20,000 bases of DNA from Chthonomonadaceae bacterium. Lineage in GTDB: Bacteria > Armatimonadota > Chthonomonadetes > Chthonomonadales > Chthonomonadaceae. Both the position numbers and the translations under genes were made by a program. Positions 919-19,861 of the stretch are shown here, one piece after another. How positions within the stretch are numbered: position 1 is the first letter of the stretch; each line of letters begins with the position of its first letter. The DNA is taken from the NCBI GenBank assembly GCA_035650735.1, contig DASRGZ010000115.1, positions 55,187 to 75,186 of the forward strand, in the 5' to 3' direction. Under the pieces are notes generated by a model that made no database searches, had not been told where the DNA came from, and worked only from the letters and a program-made list of their open reading frames with translations.

Positions 919-983
919 TCTAGTAATCAGGGCCAATCGTCGAGAAGACAATACAGGCCGCAAACTTTGTTTATCTTCTTGCT

Positions 984-1035
984 GCCAGGGACAGGAGGTT
1001 GTCCCTGGCTTTTTGTTATCATCGGAGTCCTGCCG
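984..1035 (+). repeat. Dispersed hairpin repeat, copy 1 (GCCAGGGACA-GGAGGT-TGTCCCTGGC plus tail TTTTTGTTATCATCGGAGTCCTGCCG); possible terminator and/or operator-promoter
   Basis: Perfect 10-bp inverted repeat (984-993 / 1000-1009) with a 6-nt loop and a T-tract; 47/52 identical to 4288-4339. Confidence 0.9.
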
Positions 1036-1146
1036 CCTCCGCCGGTTGTCACAGTTTTTTCTCCTGGTTTCTAGTTATGGCGTAATGTGCTTGAGTCCAG
1101 CATCTAATAAGTGGAACTATATTTGCTCAGGAGGCAGGAAGACGCG

Positions 1147-1995
1147 ATGAAGGCTGAGGGGAACGAGCGCATAACGGTCAAGGAAGTGGCCCGGCTGTTG
1201 AGTTGCTCGGTGACCGGGGTTCGCTACTGGATACGCAAGGGATATCTGACCCTGCACAGGCCGCCAGGGCGGACAAAAGGGCGTCCCGCATGGCTATTGA
1301 TATCGGAGGTGCGCGCCTTTGCCGCCCAGCGTGAGCGGGAACGGCAACGGCAGTACCGCTGGCTGCGCAACCGCCGTGTTCAACCGCTGACGGCGGGGCT
1401 CAGGCAGGAGGAGCGGTTTATTACCCTCAAGGAGGCGGCGGCGCTGCTTAGGGTGACACTGGATCGTGCCGCCAAGCTCGCCCGAGAGCGCAAGCTGCCG
1501 ACGTATCGTCCTACGGAAGGCCATTTCAAGTACCTGCTGCCGTTGCGCGCTGTTGAAACTCTTCGCGAAGATCCCCACTATTTGCGTGATCGGGCGGAGT
1601 GGGAGAACCGTCACGGGCGCAAGGGCAGGGGGCCGGGTGGGGAGGTGCTGGACGGCACGCCTGCCGAGGAAGAGGCCGAGTGGCTGACGGCGGAGCAGGT
1701 GGGGCATCGGCTGGGGATAAGTTATCAGCGGGTCTATTGTCTGCGCCGTTCGGGGCGGCTGCCTGCGGTGCGTTGCCGACGCTTGGGCAACCCGAACGGC
1801 CCGCTGTGGCGTTTTCATAGGGATGCCATACAGGCGCTCCTGGACGACCCGAAATACCAGCAAGACCGGGCCAAATATCAGAAGGCCGAAGCGACGACGT
1901 TTAACAAGCAGGTGGAGTGGACGCTGCGCGTCAACGGCTGGGATCGCACCGACCATGAGTGGGGTTATGAAGGCTGGCCGGGCGGTATCTGGTAG
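1147..1995 (+). CDS. Protein with three tandem excisionase/MerR-like helix-turn-helix (HTH_17) units
   Basis: Three motifs of the type [IL]T..E.A..L..S...V.......G.L: ITVKEVARLLSCSVTGVRYWIRKGYL, ITLKEAAALLRVTLDRAAKLARERKLP, LTAEQVGHRLGISYQRVYCLRRSGRLP. ATG at 1147 follows AGGAGG/AGGAAG. Confidence 0.8.
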   Translation: MKAEGNERITVKEVARLLSCSVTGVRYWIRKGYLTLHRPPGRTKGRPAWLLISEVRAFAAQRERERQRQYRWLRNRRVQPLTAGLRQEERFITLKEAAALLRVTLDRAAKLARERKLPTYRPTEGHFKYLLPLRAVETLREDPHYLRDRAEWENRHGRKGRGPGGEVLDGTPAEEEAEWLTAEQVGHRLGISYQRVYCLRRSGRLPAVRCRRLGNPNGPLWRFHRDAIQALLDDPKYQQDRAKYQKAEATTFNKQVEWTLRVNGWDRTDHEWGYEGWPGGIW

Positions 1996-2088
1996 ATAAA
2001 TGGTGGGACGCCAAGAGGAAAGTCATGCTATAGGGCGTATAAGCTGGTAACTGGTAAATCGACTCTAACTCTGCGAAAGGAGAATGCG

Positions 2089-2538
2089 ATGAAGCTTCCT
2101 GGAATGCTCCTGGTTCTTACGCTTGTCAACTTGATGCTCGTTTCGATCCTGTTGGCGCGCGGTCAGAAAGCCGACGCCCGCAACGAATTGTCGGTCCTTC
2201 GTGGCCGGGCGCTGGAGATCGTGGATGATCAAGGCAGGGTCCGTGCGAGCATCAACATCTTCCCAACAGATCCTAAATTCAAGACAGCGGACGGCAAACC
2301 GTATCCAGAGACTGTTCTGCTTCGCCTGATCAACTCCAACGGCGCTCCCAACGTCAAGCTCAGCGCTTCCAACGATGGCGCGGCGCTCGGTCTGGGAGGC
2401 GCCTCCAATCCCACTTACATTCAAGTGATTGCCGCCGGGGACGAAACGTTTGTAAATATGACAAACAAGGACGGAAAGAAACAGACGTTGAAGCCTGGAA
2501 GGAGAAACGGACCAACTCCCTATTTCCCCCGCCGATAA
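2089..2538 (+). CDS. Hypothetical exported or membrane-anchored beta-rich protein
   Basis: AAGGAG RBS before ATG 2089; N-terminal hydrophobic stretch; beta-strand-like segments (LEIVDDQGRVRA, LLRLINSNGAPNVKL). Confidence 0.75.
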   Translation: MKLPGMLLVLTLVNLMLVSILLARGQKADARNELSVLRGRALEIVDDQGRVRASINIFPTDPKFKTADGKPYPETVLLRLINSNGAPNVKLSASNDGAALGLGGASNPTYIQVIAAGDETFVNMTNKDGKKQTLKPGRRNGPTPYFPRR

Positions 2539-2868
2539 CAGACGAACTTTGCAAGCAGAGGCGCGGTGGGAGTAGCCCGTTTGACCTCTAAGTAACCTTG
2601 GGTTTTGAGGTGGATCGCCCCCTCGGCAGCAGGCTGGCGCGGAGCAGATCCAATGTCCCACGTCCACAAACCGCGTCCGGTGGTAGAAGCTGCCCGCGTG
2701 AGTTTAGTTATCGGGGTTGGCTGAGCGAAACGGAGGGACACATCATCGTACACAAACAGGAAAAGTGGGAAAGTCAAAAAGGCCAACATGGGGATGCGCT
2801 TTCGGACATGCATAAGAAACCGAGGAGTTATGTGGTCACCGATCCATTCCATACGTACCTACTGAGAA

Positions 2869-3654
2869 TCAGGCACGTTCGGCACTGACGGCAATTGTGG
2901 TGCGGGTGCGATAGGAAAGGCGAGGATCCTCCAGACATTCCCCTAATCGCGCGACCTTGGCTGCGACCGGGGGGTGTGTCTGCGTTAGGGAAGCGGCTAA
3001 CTGTTGGAAAGAGATCTGATGGAACCGGGCTTCCGCACTGCCTCCTACGACGGTACGGGCGCGGCGCGTCATACGGGTAACCTGAAAGCCAACACGCTTC
3101 GCTAGCGCCCCAAGGTGTTGCCCTAATCGCACGTCCATCCCGCGTTCAGCATACACCCAAAGGACATCCTGTATTCCTTGCTCGCAGGTCGAGCGCAGGG
3201 GTTCCGGTGTGCCTGCATCCACTTGCCAGGTCGAGAAGTCCGACTCCTCGACCAGTAAAACGCCTCCCGGCTTGAGCGTAGACAGCACCTTGGAGAAGAT
3301 GCGTTCGTGTTGCTCCTGGGGGACATGGATGAGGACATGGCGCATATGCGCCAGATCGAAGGTCTGCGGCGGCAGGGCATCCTCGACAATGTCATGTCGC
3401 CACACTTCGCACCGCTCCGAGTCCAGGAGATGAGGCTGCACATCGGTAGCCACGACCCGTCCCTCTTTCCCCACCTGGTCGGCCAGCCAGTAAGCGATGG
3501 AACCGGCCCCGGCGCCAATCTCCAGGCAGTTCCACCCCGCTCCGACGCCCAAGGTAATTAACTGCTCCAGGGTGCAGGCATCTTCTATTTGCTCCAGAGC
3601 CTGCAGACGCGCGAGCGCAACAACGTGTTCATTTGGATAGAGATAGTCTGTCAT
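2869..3654 (-). CDS. Class I SAM-dependent methyltransferase
   Basis: Motif I CLEIGAGAGS, VVATD, FDLAH.R.VL.H and LKPGGVLLVEE. Confidence 0.92.
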   Translation of the reverse strand: MTDYLYPNEHVVALARLQALEQIEDACTLEQLITLGVGAGWNCLEIGAGAGSIAYWLADQVGKEGRVVATDVQPHLLDSERCEVWRHDIVEDALPPQTFDLAHMRHVLIHVPQEQHERIFSKVLSTLKPGGVLLVEESDFSTWQVDAGTPEPLRSTCEQGIQDVLWVYAERGMDVRLGQHLGALAKRVGFQVTRMTRRARTVVGGSAEARFHQISFQQLAASLTQTHPPVAAKVARLGECLEDPRLSYRTRTTIAVSAERA

Positions 3655-3719
3655 GTTGCGATACTCATGCTGTCCCGTCTTGCTCTAACCAAGCCCTGGC
3701 TCTCTTGCCACCCAGGACA

Positions 3720-4091
3720 CTACCTCCGCAGAGGCGCGAACTCCGGGCCGGTGTACAATTGCCACAGAATCGGAGCCGACAGACCGGCGGTCAGGATCAC
3801 CGGAAGGGCCAAGAGCACCCACCAGACCAGGCGCTTACGCGCCTGTTTGGCTTGCCCTTCTTTCCCGGAGTGCATACAGACCCCCGCCACAAGGCCCGCC
3901 ACAGCGCCCAGGATAGGAGCGCCTGGGATCGTGATAATTCCAATATTCATGTATTCGGGGGATCCCGCGAGCGGAAAGAGTTTGATCACGAGGACCACCA
4001 CGCCATTGACCAAGAAGAACCAGGAGACCGCTCCGAGGAGGATAGTCTCCAGCACCCGAAGCAGCCACCGCATATCCGAGGATGCTTGCAT
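3720..4091 (-). CDS. Small membrane protein with about 3 TM helices
   Basis: AGGAGG RBS just upstream of ATG 4091 (MQASSDM...); three hydrophobic segments. The longer ORF from 4259 adds an unlikely Arg/Ser-rich extension. Confidence 0.7.
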   Translation of the reverse strand: MQASSDMRWLLRVLETILLGAVSWFFLVNGVVVLVIKLFPLAGSPEYMNIGIITIPGAPILGAVAGLVAGVCMHSGKEGQAKQARKRLVWWVLLALPVILTAGLSAPILWQLYTGPEFAPLRR

Positions 4092-4287
4092 GGAATCCCT
4101 CCTGGGCCGCGCCGGACTAGCCCTTATACGAACACCGCCACTCTGCCTGTTGCGCGCGCTGCTGGGCAGCCGCACAGGGCGAACCTTGCCTACAAATTCC
4201 TGGCTCCTGCGAAAACTCCTGCTTGGTCGGCAAGCCTCTCCTCGCGATTTAGAGGACATGAGGAATTTAAATCTTGAGAGGCAGAAT

Positions 4288-4339
4288 GCCAGGGACAGGG
4301 TGTTGTCCCTGGCTTTGTGTTATCATAAGAGTCCTGCCG
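4288..4339 (+). repeat. Dispersed hairpin repeat, copy 2 (GCCAGGGACA-GGGTGT-TGTCCCTGGC plus TTTGTGTTATCATAAGAGTCCTGCCG), upstream of the nucleotidyltransferase-uvrA pair
   Basis: Perfect 10-bp arms (4288-4297 / 4304-4313); TGTTATCAT extended -10-like motif at 4318-4326. Confidence 0.9.
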
Positions 4340-4524
4340 TCGCAAGGGTGTGGCAGGGTTCAGCCTGCCTCACGGTCGCACCTGCGCAAAAAGGATTTTC
4401 CGCCTTTGGAAAACGCGCGGGAGTGTGCAACTTAACGGCAGCGCCATCTGTCAAGAATCAAGCGTGCCAACCACTCAGGTTCTAGAACCTCCTGTTCCCC
4501 GTGCAGGCAAGGAGACAGACAGCC

Positions 4525-5453
4525 ATGCAGACGACGACGGAGAACGTCCAACAACGCTTTGCCGAGGCGCTCGAATCGTTTGTGGCGCGGGTCAAGCAAG
4601 ACCCCTATGTGATCGCGGCCCTGCTCTTCGGCAGCCTGGCCTACGATCAGGTCTGGGAGAAGTCGGATATTGATATCATCCTCGTCGGCAAGGACGAGCG
4701 CAAGCCGGAGCGCTCCTACGCCCTGGTCGAGAACGGCATCAATATCCATATCATTATGCTCTCCCGCAGCAAGTTCAAGCAGGCCCTGGAAGGCTCCCTG
4801 CAAAGCTCCTTCTTCCACTCCTCCTTCTCCAAAAGCACCTTACTTTTTTCCAGAGACGAGTCCCTCCGAGAGTATTACGACAACGTGAAGCGCGTTGGAG
4901 CGCGCGACAGGGAGATGCAACTGCTGCGTACCAGCGGCGGCACGATCTACTCCCTGGCGAAGGCGGAGAAGTGGTTCTATGTCAAGCGCGACCTGGAGTA
5001 CAGCTTCCTCTGGATTCTCTACACGGTGGACAGCCTGGCAAAGATCGAAGTACTGCTCCACAGCGAAGTGACCGGGCGCGAGGTCATTCAGCAGGCGCTC
5101 CAGATCAATCCCGACCTCTTCCATGCGCTCTATACCGACCTTATACACGGGCCGAAGACCGCGCAGGCCATTCAGGAGGCCCTGGATCGCATCAACGGCT
5201 ACCTGGACGAGAAGGCGATGCTCCTGTTCCGGCCCATCCTGGACTATCTGGCCGAGTCGGGCGGCGCTCGCTCTGCCACCGAGATTGACGAGTACTTCAA
5301 GAAGAGGGCGCAAACCGAAACGCTGTCTTTTGTGTGTGAGTGGCTGGCGGACAAGGACATTATCCGCAAGGTGTCCGCTCCGCTCTTCCTGACCGAAAAG
5401 AGCCGTGTCGCCGTCGAAGAGGCGGCCTACTACTATGATGGAGGCGAGAGATA

Positions 5454-5454
<1 letters not shown>
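4525..5454 (+). CDS. Pol-beta-superfamily nucleotidyltransferase domain protein (YgxA-like: NTase, helical domain, C-terminal winged helix)
   Basis: Signature [19 protein letters not shown] (hGS...DhD); helical middle region; C-terminal wHTH-like segment ([21 protein letters not shown]...[11 protein letters not shown]). AAGGAG RBS before ATG 4525. Stop overlaps the uvrA start (TAATG). Confidence 0.85.
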
Positions 5455-8318
<2,864 letters not shown>

Positions 8319-8457
8319 ACATCGCTGCCCGACCAATCGTCGCAGGGGACGAGCCGCCAGCCATGCTTGTGTAGAGCAGTAAGGTTCTTCAGGCGGCTCA
8401 CCCCTGAACTCGGTAGTTATGCAGCAGGGATTAAGTCAGCGAGAGGGGACATTTCCG

Positions 8458-8874
8458 ATGAGCGATGACTTGCAGAGAGCCAGGAAGCAGAAGACCGCTA
8501 TAGCCCCCATGCTCTCGGTGCGAAACGGGGCGCGTGCGGTCGAGTTCTACAAGGTGGCGTTCGGAGCCGAGGAGGTATTCCGCATCGAAAGCGAGGATGG
8601 GCACATGGTTGCTCGGTTGTCCGTGCGGGGAGCTGAATTCTGGCTTGCCGACGAGTCTCCGGAGTATTTCAACTTCAGCCCCGAGTCGCTCGGTGGCGGC
8701 TCTGTGCGGATGGTGATGACCGTGGAAGACCCGGATGCCTCTTTCGAACGGGCTGTCGCAGCAGGGGCTACCAAAGTTTGGCCCGTCAGCAATCAGCACG
8801 GTTGGCGCTTAGGACGTATCGTCGATCCGTTCGGACACCATTGGGAAATCGGCAAGCCCCTTTCAGAAGGCTAG
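8458..8874 (+). CDS. VOC family protein (glyoxalase/bleomycin resistance/PhnB-like)
   Basis: IAPMLSVRNGARAVEFYKVAFGA and WRLGRIVDPFGHHWEI motifs; GAGGGG RBS before ATG 8458. Confidence 0.92.
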   Translation: MSDDLQRARKQKTAIAPMLSVRNGARAVEFYKVAFGAEEVFRIESEDGHMVARLSVRGAEFWLADESPEYFNFSPESLGGGSVRMVMTVEDPDASFERAVAAGATKVWPVSNQHGWRLGRIVDPFGHHWEIGKPLSEG

Positions 8875-8915
8875 TGAACGTCGGTTGCCTATAGCTCGTG
8901 GAGGGAACCGGTATG

Positions 8916-8953
8916 CTGCCAGGGAGAAAGTAATCTCCCTGGCAGTTTCTTAT
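8916..8953 (+). terminator. Dispersed hairpin repeat, copy 3 (CTGCCAGGGAGA-AAGTAA-TCTCCCTGGCAG plus TTTCTTAT); likely intrinsic terminator after the VOC gene
   Basis: Perfect 12-bp stem (8916-8927 / 8934-8945) about 40 nt after the stop, followed by a T-rich tail; compensatory C-G to G-C pair relative to copies 1 and 2. Confidence 0.7.
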
Positions 8954-9069
8954 CTGCCCTCCGTTAGAAGAGGAACGCTTCCGCCTTGCTAAGCCCTCTG
9001 TCCGGCGATTGGCAGCCCGGTATAGAGCGTATATGGAGAGCATTTCAGCCCGTTACCATGCCTGGAACT

Positions 9070-9124
9070 AAAAATAAAAAGTTTGAGGAGGGCTTGACTC
9101 TGACATTACGTCACCCTGTACACT
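9070..9124 (+). promoter_or_regulatory. MerR-type sigma70 promoter with 19-bp spacer and operator dyad
   Basis: -35 TTGACT at 9094-9099, 19-nt spacer, -10 TACACT at 9119-9124; dyad TGAC-ATTAC-GTCA at 9101-9113 in the spacer; A-tract (UP-like) at 9070-9080. This matches the established Mta/TipA promoter architecture. Confidence 0.88.
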
Positions 9125-9146
9125 CCAGAGCAGAAAGGAGGAAAAC

Positions 9147-9923
9147 TTGAATCGCCGTTTCTATCGCATAGGCCAGTTCGCCGACAAAGCCTCTGTCACC
9201 GTCCGCGCGCTGCGCTACTATGATCGGGTTGGGCTGCTGTCGCCCTCGCAGCATACTGAGTCGGGTTATCGTCTCTACACGGAACAAGACCTGCTTACCC
9301 TTCAGCAGATTCTATCGCTCAAGTTTCTGGGCTTCTCGCTGGAGGAGATTAAGCTCTGCCTGCACGCCGAACCGAAGCGGTTCCAGGAGGCCCTTGTTCA
9401 GCAAAAAGCCCTGCTGCGGGAGAAACGAAGCCAGTTGGATGCCATTCTTGGGGCCATTGAGGAGATAGAGTCGCGACTGGAGGCGGGCGATTGGGATTGG
9501 GAGTCCCTCGCCGGAGCGATTCAGGTGAAAAGGATCATGTCAACAGCAACAACCCTGAGTGAGGCTCTCAAGGGTCTCGAAAATCAGTTGGTACAGGACA
9601 ACAGGCAGCAATTCGTTCCGTTGCTGGAAGAGCGGTCCGTGCAGGAGGCGATTCGCGTCGCGCAAGCCGCCTATGAACCGCTCACGCCAGGGAAGGGTGA
9701 ACACTATTACCGGTCGGTTATTCAGCCGCTCTTGCAGCAAATCGTGGATCAGGGCGCATGGCCAGGGAACGCGGAGTTCGATGCTTTCTACGAGTTGCCG
9801 AAAGATAACGGCGTCACCTATCAGGGTTTGGGAGTGAGCCTCGAAATCTGGACGCCCGATGAGGCATTTAAAGGCTTCTCATTGCCGGTTTTGGATGTGT
9901 GGTATGGCCGCTGGGTCGAGTAG
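9147..9923 (+). CDS. MerR family transcriptional regulator with unrecognised C-terminal domain
   Basis: YRIGQFADKASVTVRALRYYDRVGLLSP..TESGYRLY..LKFLGFSLEEIK followed by a coiled coil; AGGAGG RBS before TTG 9147. Confidence 0.93.
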   Translation: MNRRFYRIGQFADKASVTVRALRYYDRVGLLSPSQHTESGYRLYTEQDLLTLQQILSLKFLGFSLEEIKLCLHAEPKRFQEALVQQKALLREKRSQLDAILGAIEEIESRLEAGDWDWESLAGAIQVKRIMSTATTLSEALKGLENQLVQDNRQQFVPLLEERSVQEAIRVAQAAYEPLTPGKGEHYYRSVIQPLLQQIVDQGAWPGNAEFDAFYELPKDNGVTYQGLGVSLEIWTPDEAFKGFSLPVLDVWYGRWVE

Positions 9924-9931
9924 CAGTGAGC

Positions 9932-9959
9932 GGCAAGAGATATTCTTGCCTTTCCTCTT
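9932..9959 (+). terminator. Putative intrinsic terminator after the MerR gene
   Basis: GGCAAGA-GATAT-TCTTGCC stem-loop followed by TTTCCTCTT, 8 nt after the stop. Confidence 0.5.
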
Positions 9960-10152
9960 GCTGGCTGGTCCGTAATAACGGCAAAGTGTCTCGGTTCCTA
10001 CTGATCCGCCCCTAGCTTTCTAAAGGCACTCTGCGTGCTTGACGCTGACTTTGAAGGCAAACTTTAGAGATTAATGCTCGAATCAGTAAACCGGCCTGCT
10101 CCTGAAAAGAAGGGAGTACTGAACAAAAAGTGTAGAATTCTTTCCGCTTTTG

Positions 10153-10193
10153 CTGCCAGGGACGGAGTGTTGTCTCTGGCAGTTTGTTATTAT
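10153..10193 (+). repeat. Dispersed hairpin repeat, copy 4 (CTGCCAGGGACG-GAGTGT-TGTCTCTGGCAG plus TTTGTTATTAT)
   Basis: 12-bp stem (10153-10164 / 10171-10182) whose two non-Watson-Crick positions are both G-T; followed by TGTTATTAT. Confidence 0.85.
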
Positions 10194-10245
10194 AGGGTAT
10201 ACCCTGGCGCGCTGCGCGCTACCGCTCCACAGGAGGCTACAGGTC

Positions 10246-10431
10246 ATGATGCCAATGCTATTTGCCCACTGGAATCGTCTGTTCCACCGCGATAGACCGT
10301 CTGTATCATCCCATTCCGTCCGTCAACGGCGACCGCGCCGGTCCCTCGTCACGACCTTGTCAGACGAAAACAGCGTTCTCTTCATCTTCTACGCATACCT
10401 GCTCTGCTACCGTCCCTGGTGGCTATCCTAG
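10246..10431 (+). CDS. Putative small protein (61 aa) with hydrophobic/aromatic C-terminus
   Basis: AGGAGG at 10231-10236 before ATG 10246; lies downstream of a -10-like motif; no family recognised. Confidence 0.4.
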   Translation: MMPMLFAHWNRLFHRDRPSVSSHSVRQRRPRRSLVTTLSDENSVLFIFYAYLLCYRPWWLS

Positions 10432-10476
10432 CTGCCCACTATACACAGCCGACAACAATTTTGAAGGAGCACCGTA

Positions 10477-10710
10477 ATGACACGCACCATTTCTGCGCCA
10501 CGTTTCTTCTTCTCCGGCGAGACGGTTGAGCCTGGAGTCTATCGCGATGTCGAGTCTGGCGCGACCGTCACCGTCCTGGAACCGGATACGCTGCCTTTGG
10601 AAGTGCGGATTCTGCGCGTTACCCGATTTTTCTTGCGTATAGACCAGGAACCGAATGCCGCCGTCGCGAACTTGACCCTGCCTGTCTGTGAGAGTGGGAC
10701 CGGGAGTTAG
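10477..10710 (+). CDS. Small hypothetical protein (weak YjzC-like F.xGE...PGxY pattern)
   Basis: GAAGGAG RBS before ATG 10477; FFSGETVEPGVYRDVESG...DTLP pattern. Confidence 0.65.
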   Translation: MTRTISAPRFFFSGETVEPGVYRDVESGATVTVLEPDTLPLEVRILRVTRFFLRIDQEPNAAVANLTLPVCESGTGS

Positions 10711-12714: not shown

Positions 12715-13860
12715 TCAGGCGCGTTTGTTCAGCCAGAGGTCTATGCGCGGGGCTTCCCAGTTATAAGGCTTGGCGCAGATGTCCGGGCGACCGTCTCCGT
12801 CCAGATCGCCCACCTTGCCCTCATGGATGCCGAATCCGGTGGCGATTACCATCTGCGTGAAATGGCCCTTGCCGTCGCCCAGGAAGAGCCACATATGGGC
12901 GTCCAGGTGATCCGGCTGCGGGGCCGACTCCGTCCACTTCGCCATCTCCCCACAGAAGATGTCCGGCGTGCCGTCCCCGGTAAAATCCACTATCGCCAGC
13001 GTGTGCCCGTGTATCACGTCGTGGCCGAGCAGGTCGTGGCCGACCCAGGCGGAAGTCTCTTTCGGGTCGCCCTTGCACTCGTACCACTTCAGACGGCCCA
13101 CGCCGTCGCCGGGAACCATGACAACCTCCAGCCGGCCATCGCCGTTCAGGTCGCCGACGGCCATGCGCGGATGCGTCTGCACAGGGTCAATCCCATACGA
13201 GTCAAACTTCCCGCCACCCTGGTGCTTGAACCAGCGCCCGCCCGCCAGCAGTTCGATCTTCCCATCGCCGTCTATATCGCCTTGCGCCAGTCCTTCGCCC
13301 GCGCCAGAGAAAATCTCGGTATACGGCCAGGGCTGTACCGTCGGGTCGGCGGGGATGGGCGCGTGGAAGAGCTTGTTCGCGCCCTGGTTCCAGAAGACCA
13401 GTTCGGCTTTGCCGTCGCCGTCAAAATCGCCGCAGAGCATGTCGTGGTGCTGTGTCGCGCCGGAGTTTTTGATCTCGTAGCGTTTCCAGGGCGTGTTGGG
13501 GGCGTAGTGGGGATACGGATTCTTCCACCAGTAGACCTTGTTGCTCTGCCAATCGCCTCCGGCAAGGATGTCCAGGCTGCCGTCGCCGTCCACGTCAGAG
13601 AAGGTCATGCCGGCCTCGATGGTGATCATCGTGTCCTCAATGACGTAGACGGCCCAGCCTTTGGCGGCAGGCCGGTACCAGACCAGGGCGGGCGCTTTGC
13701 CCCGACAGGCGATCATGAACTCATTTCGGCCATCCTTATCGGCATCCAACACCAGGCACGCCGTCTGCTGATTGGAGCCGGGCGGCACAGGCAGGTCGCC
13801 GTTCTTGCTGGAGAGATGTACCCACTTGATGGGCGAATGGCCCTGTGTCGGTTCGGGCAT
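12715..13860 (-). CDS. FG-GAP/VCBS repeat beta-propeller protein
   Basis: About seven DxDxDGxxD/E calcium-loop repeats (DADKDGRNE, DVDGDGSLD, DFDGDGKAE, DIDGDGKIE, DLNGDGRLE, DFTGDGTPD, DLDGDGRPD); AGGAGG RBS before ATG 13860. Confidence 0.9.
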   Translation of the reverse strand: MPEPTQGHSPIKWVHLSSKNGDLPVPPGSNQQTACLVLDADKDGRNEFMIACRGKAPALVWYRPAAKGWAVYVIEDTMITIEAGMTFSDVDGDGSLDILAGGDWQSNKVYWWKNPYPHYAPNTPWKRYEIKNSGATQHHDMLCGDFDGDGKAELVFWNQGANKLFHAPIPADPTVQPWPYTEIFSGAGEGLAQGDIDGDGKIELLAGGRWFKHQGGGKFDSYGIDPVQTHPRMAVGDLNGDGRLEVVMVPGDGVGRLKWYECKGDPKETSAWVGHDLLGHDVIHGHTLAIVDFTGDGTPDIFCGEMAKWTESAPQPDHLDAHMWLFLGDGKGHFTQMVIATGFGIHEGKVGDLDGDGRPDICAKPYNWEAPRIDLWLNKRA

Positions 13861-13890
13861 TGCCGGCCTCCTATCGAAAACCAACAACCT

Positions 13891-14027
13891 CAACGGGATG
13901 AACAGGATTTAGCAGGATTTACAGGATTAAGACAAAGACACAAGCCTTGAACCTAAGAGGAAAAGTGCAATAGGTACTCGGTTGGTTGGGTGTTAGAAAT
14001 CCTGTTTAATCCTGAATAATCCTGTTG
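13891..14027. repeat. Inverted arrays of 9-10-nt CAGGATT / AATCCTG units in an AT-rich spacer
   Basis: Left: CAACGGGATG AACAGGATTT AGCAGGATTT ACAGGATT (13891-13928). Right: AATCCTGTTT AATCCTGAAT AATCCTGTTG (13998-14027). Confidence 0.88.
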
Positions 14028-14044
14028 AAAGGTTTTTCGGCGTC

Positions 14045-15436
14045 TTATGGCGTGCGGATCAGCCGCAGCGCCGTGTCCTCGGTGTAGGGCGGTGAGGCGA
14101 GGGTGAGATCGCCGCCGCTATGGGGGATGTCCTCCGTCTTCTCGGTTGCGCCCGTGCGTGGGTTGACCCATTCGGCGCAATAGTGTCCGGCAGGGAGTTC
14201 CAGCGTAAGAGTGGCCCGATTGCCGCCTTTGAGATAGAGGGCGTAGGCCCTGCCCGCCTCCGCCAGACACCGCACAGTCGCTCCCTCCGGCGCGCCGCCC
14301 TTGATGACGCCATTCTCCGGGCGCATCCGTAGAAAATCGAAACCGTTGAGGAAATCCTTCAGAATCTTGAGCTGGCGGCGTAGGGTCGGGCTACCCCCGC
14401 CCGGCTGCGTGGAGGGGAGCATGAAGGTTCCGTCCTCATGGCCGACGGTGAACGAATAGTCCAGATTGTTGTAGAGGCCGCCGCCCGCCAGCAGGAAGTC
14501 CCAGCCCTCCATGCGATAGGGCGTGTCGCCCGTCCCTTTAAAGCCCGTCTCGTCGAACCCGATGACCTTATCCAGGCCGTAGTTGACGGTCACAGCGTCC
14601 GGCGGGGCGGCATAGTGGAAGTTGAAGATGGAGACGCGCGGGTCGGGAGACTCAATCTTAGCGGAGCCGTTGGCGATGTTCTGCGCGATAAGATGCCGAT
14701 GCGGGAACGCCGCTTCCGTCTCTGCGATGATCTGGCTGATATGGGCCTGCCATTCCAGAGTCACGCCGCCAAAGTACGCCTCGTTGCATATCTCATAGAA
14801 GACGTTATCAAAGTCCTTGAGCTCCTGGACGATCTTGCGCACCATCGCCTCCTGCGCGGCGACCAGGGAAGGATGCTTCAAGGTCAGCGCCTCCGTGCGG
14901 GGCACATCGCCGATGCCCTGAATGTTGTTGCTCGCCTTAAGGGGGCTGATCTCCCACATTGAATCCTGGTAGTACGGGCAGAACAGCGAGACCTCCACGA
15001 CGATACCGCGCCGGCCTGCCTGCGTGCAGAAGTCCTTCAGGCGGTGGAAATAGGCGTCATCCCAGGTATTCAGGTCGAACTTGTTGCCGCCTCCGGCGTA
15101 TCCGGGTGTGGAACTGCGCGCCCAGGGGCAGAGCAAGCGTCCGGGAGCCGGAGCCAGCGTATTGTTACGGATGTTGAACGCTGCCGGGTCCTCCATATAG
15201 ACGCCGGTAAAGATGCGCGTGTAGTTCAACCCGTCGGCGTGCAGCGTCTCCAGGTAGCGGAGGTAATTGAAATCTTGATTGAGCACCGCGCCATAATGTT
15301 CCGCCGAGGTGATGAGGACGGTCGGTTTGCCCCGGAACAGAAAGTAGTGCGGGTTGTCGGGGTGCAGCGAGATCGGCGGCATCGGCTTGACGGCAGACGG
15401 CAGCACCGCCATTGCCACCAGGGGAGGGAATAGCAT
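14045..15436 (-). CDS. Clan GH-A (GH5-like) glycoside hydrolase with C-terminal beta-sandwich (putative collagen-binding-like domain)
   Basis: HPDNPHYFLFRGKP start, NYTRIF, YFHRL....QAGRRGIVVEV, YEICNE (acid/base), IGFDETG (nucleophile), C-terminal EWVNPRTG; AGGAG RBS. Confidence 0.82.
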   Translation of the reverse strand: MLFPPLVAMAVLPSAVKPMPPISLHPDNPHYFLFRGKPTVLITSAEHYGAVLNQDFNYLRYLETLHADGLNYTRIFTGVYMEDPAAFNIRNNTLAPAPGRLLCPWARSSTPGYAGGGNKFDLNTWDDAYFHRLKDFCTQAGRRGIVVEVSLFCPYYQDSMWEISPLKASNNIQGIGDVPRTEALTLKHPSLVAAQEAMVRKIVQELKDFDNVFYEICNEAYFGGVTLEWQAHISQIIAETEAAFPHRHLIAQNIANGSAKIESPDPRVSIFNFHYAAPPDAVTVNYGLDKVIGFDETGFKGTGDTPYRMEGWDFLLAGGGLYNNLDYSFTVGHEDGTFMLPSTQPGGGSPTLRRQLKILKDFLNGFDFLRMRPENGVIKGGAPEGATVRCLAEAGRAYALYLKGGNRATLTLELPAGHYCAEWVNPRTGATEKTEDIPHSGGDLTLASPPYTEDTALRLIRTP

Positions 15437-16131: not shown

Positions 16132-16235
16132 GCGAGGGGATGAGGGGATAGGGTTCTAAGGGTTCTTAAGGTTCTAGGGTACTATGGTGCTAGGGTTCTA
16201 GGTTGCTAGGGCGAAAGCGAGGGGATAGGGGGATG
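16132..16235. repeat. Degenerate 8-9-nt tandem repeat (AGGGTTCT, about 7 units) flanked by GCGAGGGGAT direct repeats
   Basis: AGGGTTCTA AGGGTTCTT AAGGTTCT AGGGTACT ATGGTGCT AGGGTTCT AGGTTGCT at 16150-16207; GCGAGGGGAT at 16132 and 16217. Confidence 0.85.
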
Positions 16236-19779: not shown

Positions 19780-19861
19780 GCGGCTGATGACCTTGGATTG
19801 TCTAAGGGGGCAGTTTTTCTAACTCCACTATCCGGTTAGATTGTCAAAGGTCATCAGCCGC
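19780..19861. repeat. 82-bp element with 26-bp imperfect terminal inverted repeats (MITE/REP-like)
   Basis: GCGGCTGATGACCTTGGATTGTCTAA (19780-19805) versus the reverse complement of 19836-19861, GCGGCTGATGACCTTTGACAATCTAA: 22/26 identical, outer 15 bp perfect. Confidence 0.8.

Follow-up and report, generated by a model that had tools for sequence, protein, structure and literature searches.

The window analysed here is a 20,000-nucleotide stretch of a Chthonomonadaceae genome from the phylum Armatimonadota (GenBank assembly GCA_035650735.1, contig DASRGZ010000115.1, positions 55,187 to 75,186 of the forward strand). Four copies of a dyad with a 6-nt loop lie in it on the + strand, all intergenic, among genes for an excisionase-like protein with three helix-turn-helix (HTH) domains, a nucleotidyltransferase (NTase), a second UvrA, a glyoxalase/VOC protein and a MerR-family regulator. 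The dyad cores occupy 984-1009, 4288-4313, 8918-8943 and 10155-10180; the limits given for the last two in an initial annotation of the locus (8916-8945 and 10153-10182) include extra outer pairs beyond the cores. A pattern scan allowing at most three mismatches returned these four matches from the window and 0 from 200 dinucleotide shuffles, and with outer bases added the dyads are 11-6-11 palindromes. The initial annotation had offered two explanations for them: an operator-promoter of an undescribed regulon, possibly of a DNA-damage or WYL type, or a lineage-specific mobile terminator or element resembling repetitive extragenic palindromes (REP) that also supplies a promoter. We argue for a narrower form of the first.

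Copies 1, 2 and 4 share more than the dyad. A hexamer resembling a -10 element (TATCAT, TATCAT and TATTAT, starting at 1017, 4321 and 10188) follows 11 nt past TGTC(C/T)C, a TGTC-to-hexamer distance of 13 nt, and TGT stands directly 5' of each; copy 3 has TATCTG at this place. No TTGACA-like -35 element was called at the window dyads, and the 6-nt spacer is never TTGACA-like. Since the spacer ends exactly 17 nt before the -10 hexamer, it fills the -35 position itself. A + strand stop codon precedes copy 1 by 65 nt and copy 3 by 40 nt, and upstream of copy 2 there is only a divergent gene and none on the same strand. Copies 1 and 2 are 91% alike over 53 nt, and copies 3 and 4 are 80% alike over 40 nt. 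As a description of the four sites, then, the initial annotation was accurate in its dyads, its hexamer offset, its missing -35 and its lack of a plus-strand gene before copy 2.

Beyond the window the box is rare. A weight-matrix scan of the 6.5-Mb genome found six strong sites, with scores of 34.5-61.6, the next independent site scoring 18.4. Two of the six lie outside the window, one (on contig C101) preceding a short-chain dehydrogenase/reductase (SDR) gene of family PRK08303 and the other (on C220) preceding a gene for a 599-aa ABC exporter, and both keep TAnnnT at the offset seen in the window copies. When spacer length and offset were varied genome-wide, the strict pattern gave 6 sites at a 6-nt spacer and 13-nt offset versus 0-3 in other cells; a loose GnC pattern gave no excess at that cell (23 versus 8-33 elsewhere), so weak further regulon members cannot be claimed. 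There was likewise no excess in the genome of N5-type sites or PafBC-like half-sites. The box is absent from the 320 nt read upstream of each of recA, uvrB and the housekeeping uvrA (uvrA1), which argues for a small regulon and against a genome-wide DNA-damage regulon. The genome is 97.6% complete, and searches of it with the models TIGR00498 and PF01726 found no LexA. The exact box pattern gave a single match in 60 relatives, which was judged to be chance; the flanks of the box are lineage-specific. The uvrB match itself (C92, 7879-11409) falls into separate parts of one 1,248-aa frame, as if an intein-like element had been inserted close to the N-terminus.

A candidate reader of the box is encoded close by. 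The genome has four matches to the WYL domain, and one of the genes, of 331 aa at C115:52492-53487, ends 1.7 kb before the window, its stop codon 2,702 nt from the TGTC of copy 1. The C115 protein has the order winged HTH (wHTH), WYL, WCX (PF13280, PF25583), and its AlphaFold model (mean pLDDT 83.8) shows three helices, at 87-101, 110-121 and 126-138, between the wHTH and the WYL domain. In a Foldseek search with this model the top seven rows were DriD (E 7e-16), ahead of PafBC, CapW and BrxR. The authors of the DriD report describe a three-helix bundle as the mark of homodimeric activators and a helix-hairpin as that of repressors, and state that DriD reads the G and C of its half-site with Arg37 and Arg41 (PMC10853764). 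In the recognition helices of the C115 protein and its clade, R50 is present in 78 of 78 proteins, and 68 of the 78 have K or R at position 46; by motif position, K46 and R50 correspond to the two DriD arginines. Of seven mapped DriD residues that contact single-stranded DNA, five (Y168, S172, R178, R189 and R204) pair with Y171, S175, R182, R195 and R210 in a weak alignment. R192 is invariant in the clade, and the WYL motif is degenerate. Wherever the WYL homologues carry a taxon label, it is Armatimonadota.

A paralogue on contig C93, 59-60% identical to the C115 protein, ties the box to a WYL gene within this genome. Its gene is followed after 26 nt by a variant dyad with TATCCT at the 13-nt offset, and then by cas6, a likely cas8, cas7 and cas5 (type I-B). 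A third WYL gene, a 362-aa open reading frame (ORF) on C65, has close relatives in several members of the family and is a candidate for wider damage control; no shared box was seen at recA, uvrB or uvrA1. Elsewhere, at locus L003, transposase-like ORFs (7135-10551) lie upstream of a PadR/WYL pair and a secreted-protein gene 3' of the WYL gene (13647-14160) appears frameshifted.

We asked how often such a box accompanies WYL genes of this clade. From 107 collected loci, 82 remained after reduction at 90% identity and 51 of these score at least 230 bits; six were dropped for a cut 3' end or less than 200 nt downstream, leaving 45. Under a strict rule (GACA-N6-TGTC with at most one mismatch per half, TAnnnT 13 nt later, and a position within 250 nt of the WYL stop) a box was present in 17 of the 45 loci, compared with a mean of 0.26 and a maximum of 3 in shuffles, 0-5 at other combinations of spacer and offset, and 0 on the reverse strand. 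A looser rule, admitting N6 or N7 and (T/C)AnnnT, found a proximal box in 25 loci, 20 with N6 and 5 with N7. Twelve of the remaining 20 have a box farther off at a looser threshold, and 8 of these 12 boxes precede an ORF that by eye resembles the start of Cas3-HD; the offset control for distant boxes counted 8 sites at 13 nt and also 5 at 17 nt. One distant match (L094), 9 kb off, was treated as chance. A scan of the contigs with a single protein as query gave no match, and among the closest homologues (P0002-P0020) the contigs examined were L048 and G130.

The gene after the proximal box was profile-scanned for 24 of the 25 loci (23 plus L071, with L113 left out), and 23 of the 25 boxes precede cas3-HD (17) or cas6 (6), while one precedes an NTase gene. 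At 8 of the 25 proximal sites the start codon lies 5-9 nt past the hexamer, as expected for a leaderless mRNA made from a true -10 element. Site and WYL clade thus co-occur across the Armatimonadota, with a fixed distance from site to TAnnnT and with shared targets. Fourteen of the 45 clade loci (for example L093, L087 and L070) carry another dyad, GCGAACC...GGTTCGC, with a -10-like box of its own just past the WYL stop; in G171 this dyad is followed by a CRISPR array and then by the box and a cas3-like gene, and it is likely a CRISPR leader element.

Dyads of this kind may act as DNA or as RNA, and the initial annotation had read the changes in copies 3 and 4 as the covariation to be expected of a conserved RNA or single-stranded DNA stem. 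The changes are there: copy 3 carries a symmetric GGGAGA/TCTCCC change, and copy 4 differs at two positions that would form G-U pairs. The relatives do not bear out the interpretation. Their sites hold 7 G-U pairs versus 18 A-C pairs and 50 other mismatches, a balance contrary to what selection on a + strand RNA stem would leave (the genome's own six copies, with 3 G-U, 1 A-C and 5 others, are too few to weigh). The 25 sites have 16 core mismatches between them, every one at an A/T position; the G and C of GnC never change. The outer arms are self-complementary within sites in 107 of 175 cases against 73.8 ± 5.5 after permutation, an excess inflated by kinship and by the choice of the best palindrome; a symmetric protein preference, homogenisation of the palindrome or a secondary hairpin role could each suffice to produce it.

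We regard it as very unlikely that the dyad serves chiefly as an RNA hairpin, whether an intrinsic terminator or REP-like, with an incidental or secondary match to a -10 element. Such a hairpin would account for the strong folds of the window copies (-21.5 to -26 kcal/mol, z -4.5 to -6.4, copy 3 being the strongest at -26), all four of which score as terminators, for the 4-6 T in the 8 nt downstream of this genome's copies, for the position of copies 1 and 3 soon after + strand stops and, allowing for the inflated test, for the self-complementary outer arms. It does not account for copy 2, with no same-strand gene before it, for the C220 copy, which breaks the base of the stem yet keeps the core and the -10, or for a fixed spacer length, fixed GnC bases and a fixed 13-nt offset in relatives whose T-tails are weak (1-5 T of 8). 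A mere six copies in 6.5 Mb do not make a REP-like family, and Rfam, applied at gathering threshold to the whole window, returned no match; the mobile terminator of the initial annotation is thus a poor main explanation. The leaders 3' of copies 1 and 2 fold no better than shuffles.

Termination does fit copy 3; it fits copy 1 in part and copy 2 not at all, and copy 4 sits behind another hairpin. The symmetric change in copy 3 removes the clade-invariant C from both arms; the copy has also lost its -10, folds into the strongest stem of the four and stands close behind the glyoxalase stop, so it is likely a decayed box turned terminator. A separate promoter before merR (Table 1), with a 19-bp spacing that we take to be that of MerR promoters, means that copy 3 is not needed to express merR. 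Copy 3 may plausibly terminate transcription, and copy 1 may do so in addition to its main role.

In a quick tree the C115 protein groups with those of G130 and L048 (SH-aLRT 98), apart from the C93 paralogue, and all three proteins of this sub-clade accompany a CAGGGACA-N6-TGTCCCT box before an NTase orthologue. The order in L048 is WYL gene, box with the spacer of copy 2, and NTase gene, whose product is 56% identical to that of the window. In G130, which belongs to another family, the WYL gene lies on a separate contig with no box found beside it; a perfect box and TATCCT precede NTase-uvrA2, and a second box precedes the start of the SDR orthologue. By comparison, the box was found at none of the 28 other NTase orthologues examined (450 nt of upstream sequence for 25 of them, less than 100 nt for 3), several of them from genomes with more distant clade members; one weak N5 match lay in coding sequence. 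The NTase and SDR links are thereby independently supported. A further dyad in G130 (C326) was dropped because it has no -10.

Three further likely to possible targets, namely the genes for the triple-HTH protein and the ABC exporter and the small ORF that follows copy 4, have support in this genome only. The initial annotation had named the triple-HTH protein as a candidate regulator; it is more likely a target, since the query was not found in 4 of 4 box-bearing relatives (G130, G054, G032 and G089), its one partial match coming from G001, which has no box. A query with the ABC exporter at 1e-80 gave no match in G130 or G001, leaving that target without cross-genome support. Downstream of the -10, GAGTCCTG is shared by copy 1 (1025-1035), copy 2 (4329-4339) and the NTase promoter of G130 (L197, ~2318-2325), a common start region that points to promoter duplication.

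The window UvrA is 51% identical to the housekeeping copy on C120. NTase matches occur in 38 of 401 genomes of the phylum, with a uvrA match adjoining in 23 of the 30 loci fetched; in several loci a sigma-factor-like C-terminus seems to precede the NTase or to be fused with it, and no description of the NTase-uvrA pair was found in the literature searched. In other Armatimonadota (L204/L217, L209, L213/L218), PRK08303-like SDR genes have as neighbour another WYL gene, of the YafY type, and an N5 dyad at the 13-nt offset from TAnnnT, so WYL proteins seem to have taken this SDR family as a target repeatedly. Two repeats in the window stand apart from the dyads: a long inverted repeat at 19780-19861, with 35-nt arms and a 12-nt gap, after an AI-2E transporter gene, and a short intergenic tandem run with an 8-nt period (TAGGGTTC-like) at 16150-16215.

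Table 1. Features of the window that bear on the dyads, in window coordinates.
Feature	Position	Strand	Remarks
Copy 1, 11-6-11 dyad	983..1010	+	Predicted WYL operator; if the hexamer is -12..-7, GACA is at -39..-36, the spacer at -35..-30 and TGTC at -29..-26
Copy 1 predicted -10, TATCAT	1017..1022	+	TG before it (extended -10); offset conserved in the clade
Triple HTH_17 (excisionase-like) gene	1147..1995	+	Likely target of copy 1
Copy 2 dyad	4287..4314	+	Predicted WYL operator; orthologous box before NTase in G130 and L048
Copy 2 predicted -10, TATCAT	4321..4326	+	
NTase gene, pol-beta fold	4525..5454	+	First gene after copy 2; stop overlaps the uvrA start
Second uvrA paralogue (uvrA2)	5454..8318	+	Passes UvrA equivalog cut-offs
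Glyoxalase/VOC gene (PF18029)	8458..8874	+	Likely last gene of the copy-2 transcript (co-transcription inferred)
Copy 3 dyad	8915..8946	+	13-bp perfect stem, T-rich tail, 40 nt past the VOC stop
Copy 3 decayed -10 place, TATCTG	8951..8956	+	No T at -7
MerR-type promoter, TTGACT-19 nt-TACACT	9094..9124	+	Separate, before merR; internal TGAC-N5-GTCA dyad; read from sequence
MerR-family gene	9147..9923	+	Between copies 3 and 4
Terminator-like hairpin of merR	9932-9950		
Copy 4 dyad	10154..10181	+	Predicted WYL operator; two substitutions, invariant G and C kept
Copy 4 predicted -10, TATTAT	10188..10193	+	
Small ORF, 61 aa	10246..10431	+	AGGAGG ribosome site; possible target of copy 4; no Pfam family

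The arrangement of copies and genes invites a different thought, that the dyads are dif-like sites at which a tyrosine recombinase shuffles modules, copies 1/2 and 3/4 being direct repeats round inserted modules. The 28-bp 11-6-11 shape resembles that of dif, the two pairs of copies are similar, the spacers of C101 and copy 4 are reverse complements of each other, copy 1 is followed by an excisionase-like gene, and the WYL gene, box and NTase gene that adjoin in L048 have modules between them here. However, differing spacers hinder strand exchange by tyrosine recombinases, and the spacers do differ between the copies; no integrase or recombinase was seen among the window ORFs scanned, and the viral contigs gave one exact match to the dyad, which has no -10. 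The site also accompanies WYL genes and a -10 box at dozens of cas loci where it occurs once, and we consider recombination a highly improbable explanation.

It is probable, in our judgement, that the dyad is the double-stranded DNA site of a DriD-like WYL factor, the C115 protein, and that together with its -10 it forms a promoter without a -35 element, predicted to need this factor as activator. By analogy with DriD, a WYL homodimer would read the invariant G and C of each half-site through K46 and R50, straddle the -35 position and recruit RNA polymerase, and it may be switched on by single-stranded nucleic acid, probably in DNA damage or infection; the ligand is the weakest step. The target of the factor would be a cas operon in most relatives, and NTase-uvrA2(-VOC) and SDR in the C115 sub-clade, to which this genome would add the ABC exporter, the triple-HTH gene and the small ORF. 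Binding, activation and homodimerisation are predicted properties of the C115 protein.

The same protein on the same site could conceivably act the other way, repressing an extended -10 promoter in the style of BrxR/CapW by occupying its -35 region and leaving on sensing nucleic acid. Extended -10 promoters of the form TG-n-TAnnnT can work without a -35 element, and the -35 position is covered by the site. Some defence loci are known to be under WYL repressors (PMC10853764), this clade mostly guards cas operons, and the position of DriD R207 is occupied by Ala. We nevertheless think repression unlikely: the C115 model has three DriD-like helices and not the helix-hairpin of BrxR/CapW, DriD comes first by fold, and in many relatives the extended -10 TG is missing. 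Shifts are usually tolerated by repressor sites, whereas the distance to the -10 is fixed to the base in 25 proximal sites, as would suit contact with polymerase.

Several observations weigh against activation by a DriD-like C115 protein. The three helices that set activators apart are modelled at a pLDDT of only 57-69, and in sequence searches DriD ranked no better than PafBC and CapW, or below them. In an alignment that is itself weak (E 1e-4), DriD R207 corresponds to Ala213 (77 of 78 proteins) and Y192 to Glu198, so the signal may differ from that of DriD. The C115 gene has no box directly beside it, and its recognition helix is near-identical to that of the C93 paralogue, so that which protein reads which box can only be inferred. 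Two of the 45 clade loci (L047 and L071) are this genome's own genes, and the relatives are not independent. The terminator scores of all four window copies belong on this side of the balance as well.

An extension of the activator reading, which we offer as speculation and rate as doubtful, is that WYL activators dedicated to type I CRISPR-Cas operons were redeployed, in one sub-lineage of the Armatimonadota, to an NTase-UvrA2/SDR/exporter stress regulon in a genome where no LexA was found. Such a regulon might grow by duplication of its operator-promoters (copies 1/2 and 3/4), spent copies becoming terminators, and an altered pocket, with Ala for DriD R207 and a new invariant R192, might sense another ligand: not plain single-stranded DNA, perhaps, but RNA or a product of the co-regulated nucleotidyltransferase.

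Regulatory data for the Armatimonadota are very scarce, and for one WYL clade of this phylum these results supply predictions of the binding site, the geometry of the promoter and the set of targets; judged by title or start of abstract, none of the papers found on Armatimonadota and WYL concerns regulation. The results lead to the prediction that a DriD-like activator turns on the type I CRISPR-Cas operons described here, a point relevant to the coupling of cas expression with DNA damage or infection, and they link an unstudied NTase-uvrA2 pair to a WYL regulon. They also suggest a rule, a right half-site 13 nt before the -10 with a clade-specific spacer of N5, N6 or N7, that could be used to find WYL regulons elsewhere. 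The class of mechanism is already known, so the gain is a directly testable variant and not a new kind of system.

Comparison with known WYL systems suggests that the box works like the sites of WYL activators. The literature searched holds no description of the box or the clade, though figures and supplements on DriD, SiwR and DdaA could hold similar N6 sites. The initial annotation had likened the promoters to those of mycobacterial PafBC, a likeness that stands for the WYL type and fails for the half-site. PafBC promoters have a GTC element near -26 and a bare TAnnnT without a -35, but PafBC is a heterodimer encoded by a pafB-pafC pair that reads a non-palindromic tGTCgg-N10-tA-N3-T (PMC8635444, PMC6789036), whereas here there is a full palindrome and a single gene; TGTC lies 12 nt from the -10 in PafBC promoters (PMC8635444) versus 13 nt here.

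Regulators of defence and repair operons offer further parallels. CRISPR-associated WYL regulators and the repressors BrxR and CapW (PMC10853764) are, like many members of this clade, encoded directly upstream of defence operons, but the linker domain predicted here and the promoter geometry resemble those of activators and not of repressors. DdaA of the Moraxellaceae is a WYL activator that drives uvrA and cas from a related dyad, CGWCA-N5-TGWCG, and one of its WYL-domain arginines is replaced by Ala, the first in DdaA and the second here (PMC12392091). Unlike our candidate, whose box is absent from recA, uvrB and uvrA1, DdaA regulates globally, with recA, ssb, gyr and ruv in its reach; its site lies ~50 bp before the start (PMC12392091), whereas ours is centred near -32 with a spacer 1-2 bp longer. 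SiwR of Mycobacterium smegmatis, compared by description and not base by base, is a homodimeric WYL activator of neighbouring genes and acts at an imperfect palindrome between -10 and -35 whose -26 region is needed; glyoxalase-like genes of PF18029 are found in its neighbourhood. It differs in its 19-bp site and dinB-like targets (PMC10693628).

The closest counterpart is DriD of Caulobacter crescentus. The core here is GnC-N8 (20 of 25 sites) or GnC-N9 (5 of 25) rather than the GnC-N7 of the DriD/DdaA box, the spacer is not AT-rich, no box lies at the C115 gene's own promoter, R207 is replaced by Ala, the WYL motif is degenerate, and the targets are cas operons or NTase-uvrA2, SDR and exporter genes rather than didA or recA. 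What the two systems share is an architecture of wHTH, three helices, WYL and WCX, with DriD as the top fold match here, a palindrome with an invariant G and C in each half, and a handful of targets (PMC10853764, PMC13004042). In DriD promoters, which have no -35 consensus, the site covers the -35 position and keeps a constant distance to the -10 (PMC13004042), just as the site described here lies over the -35 position.

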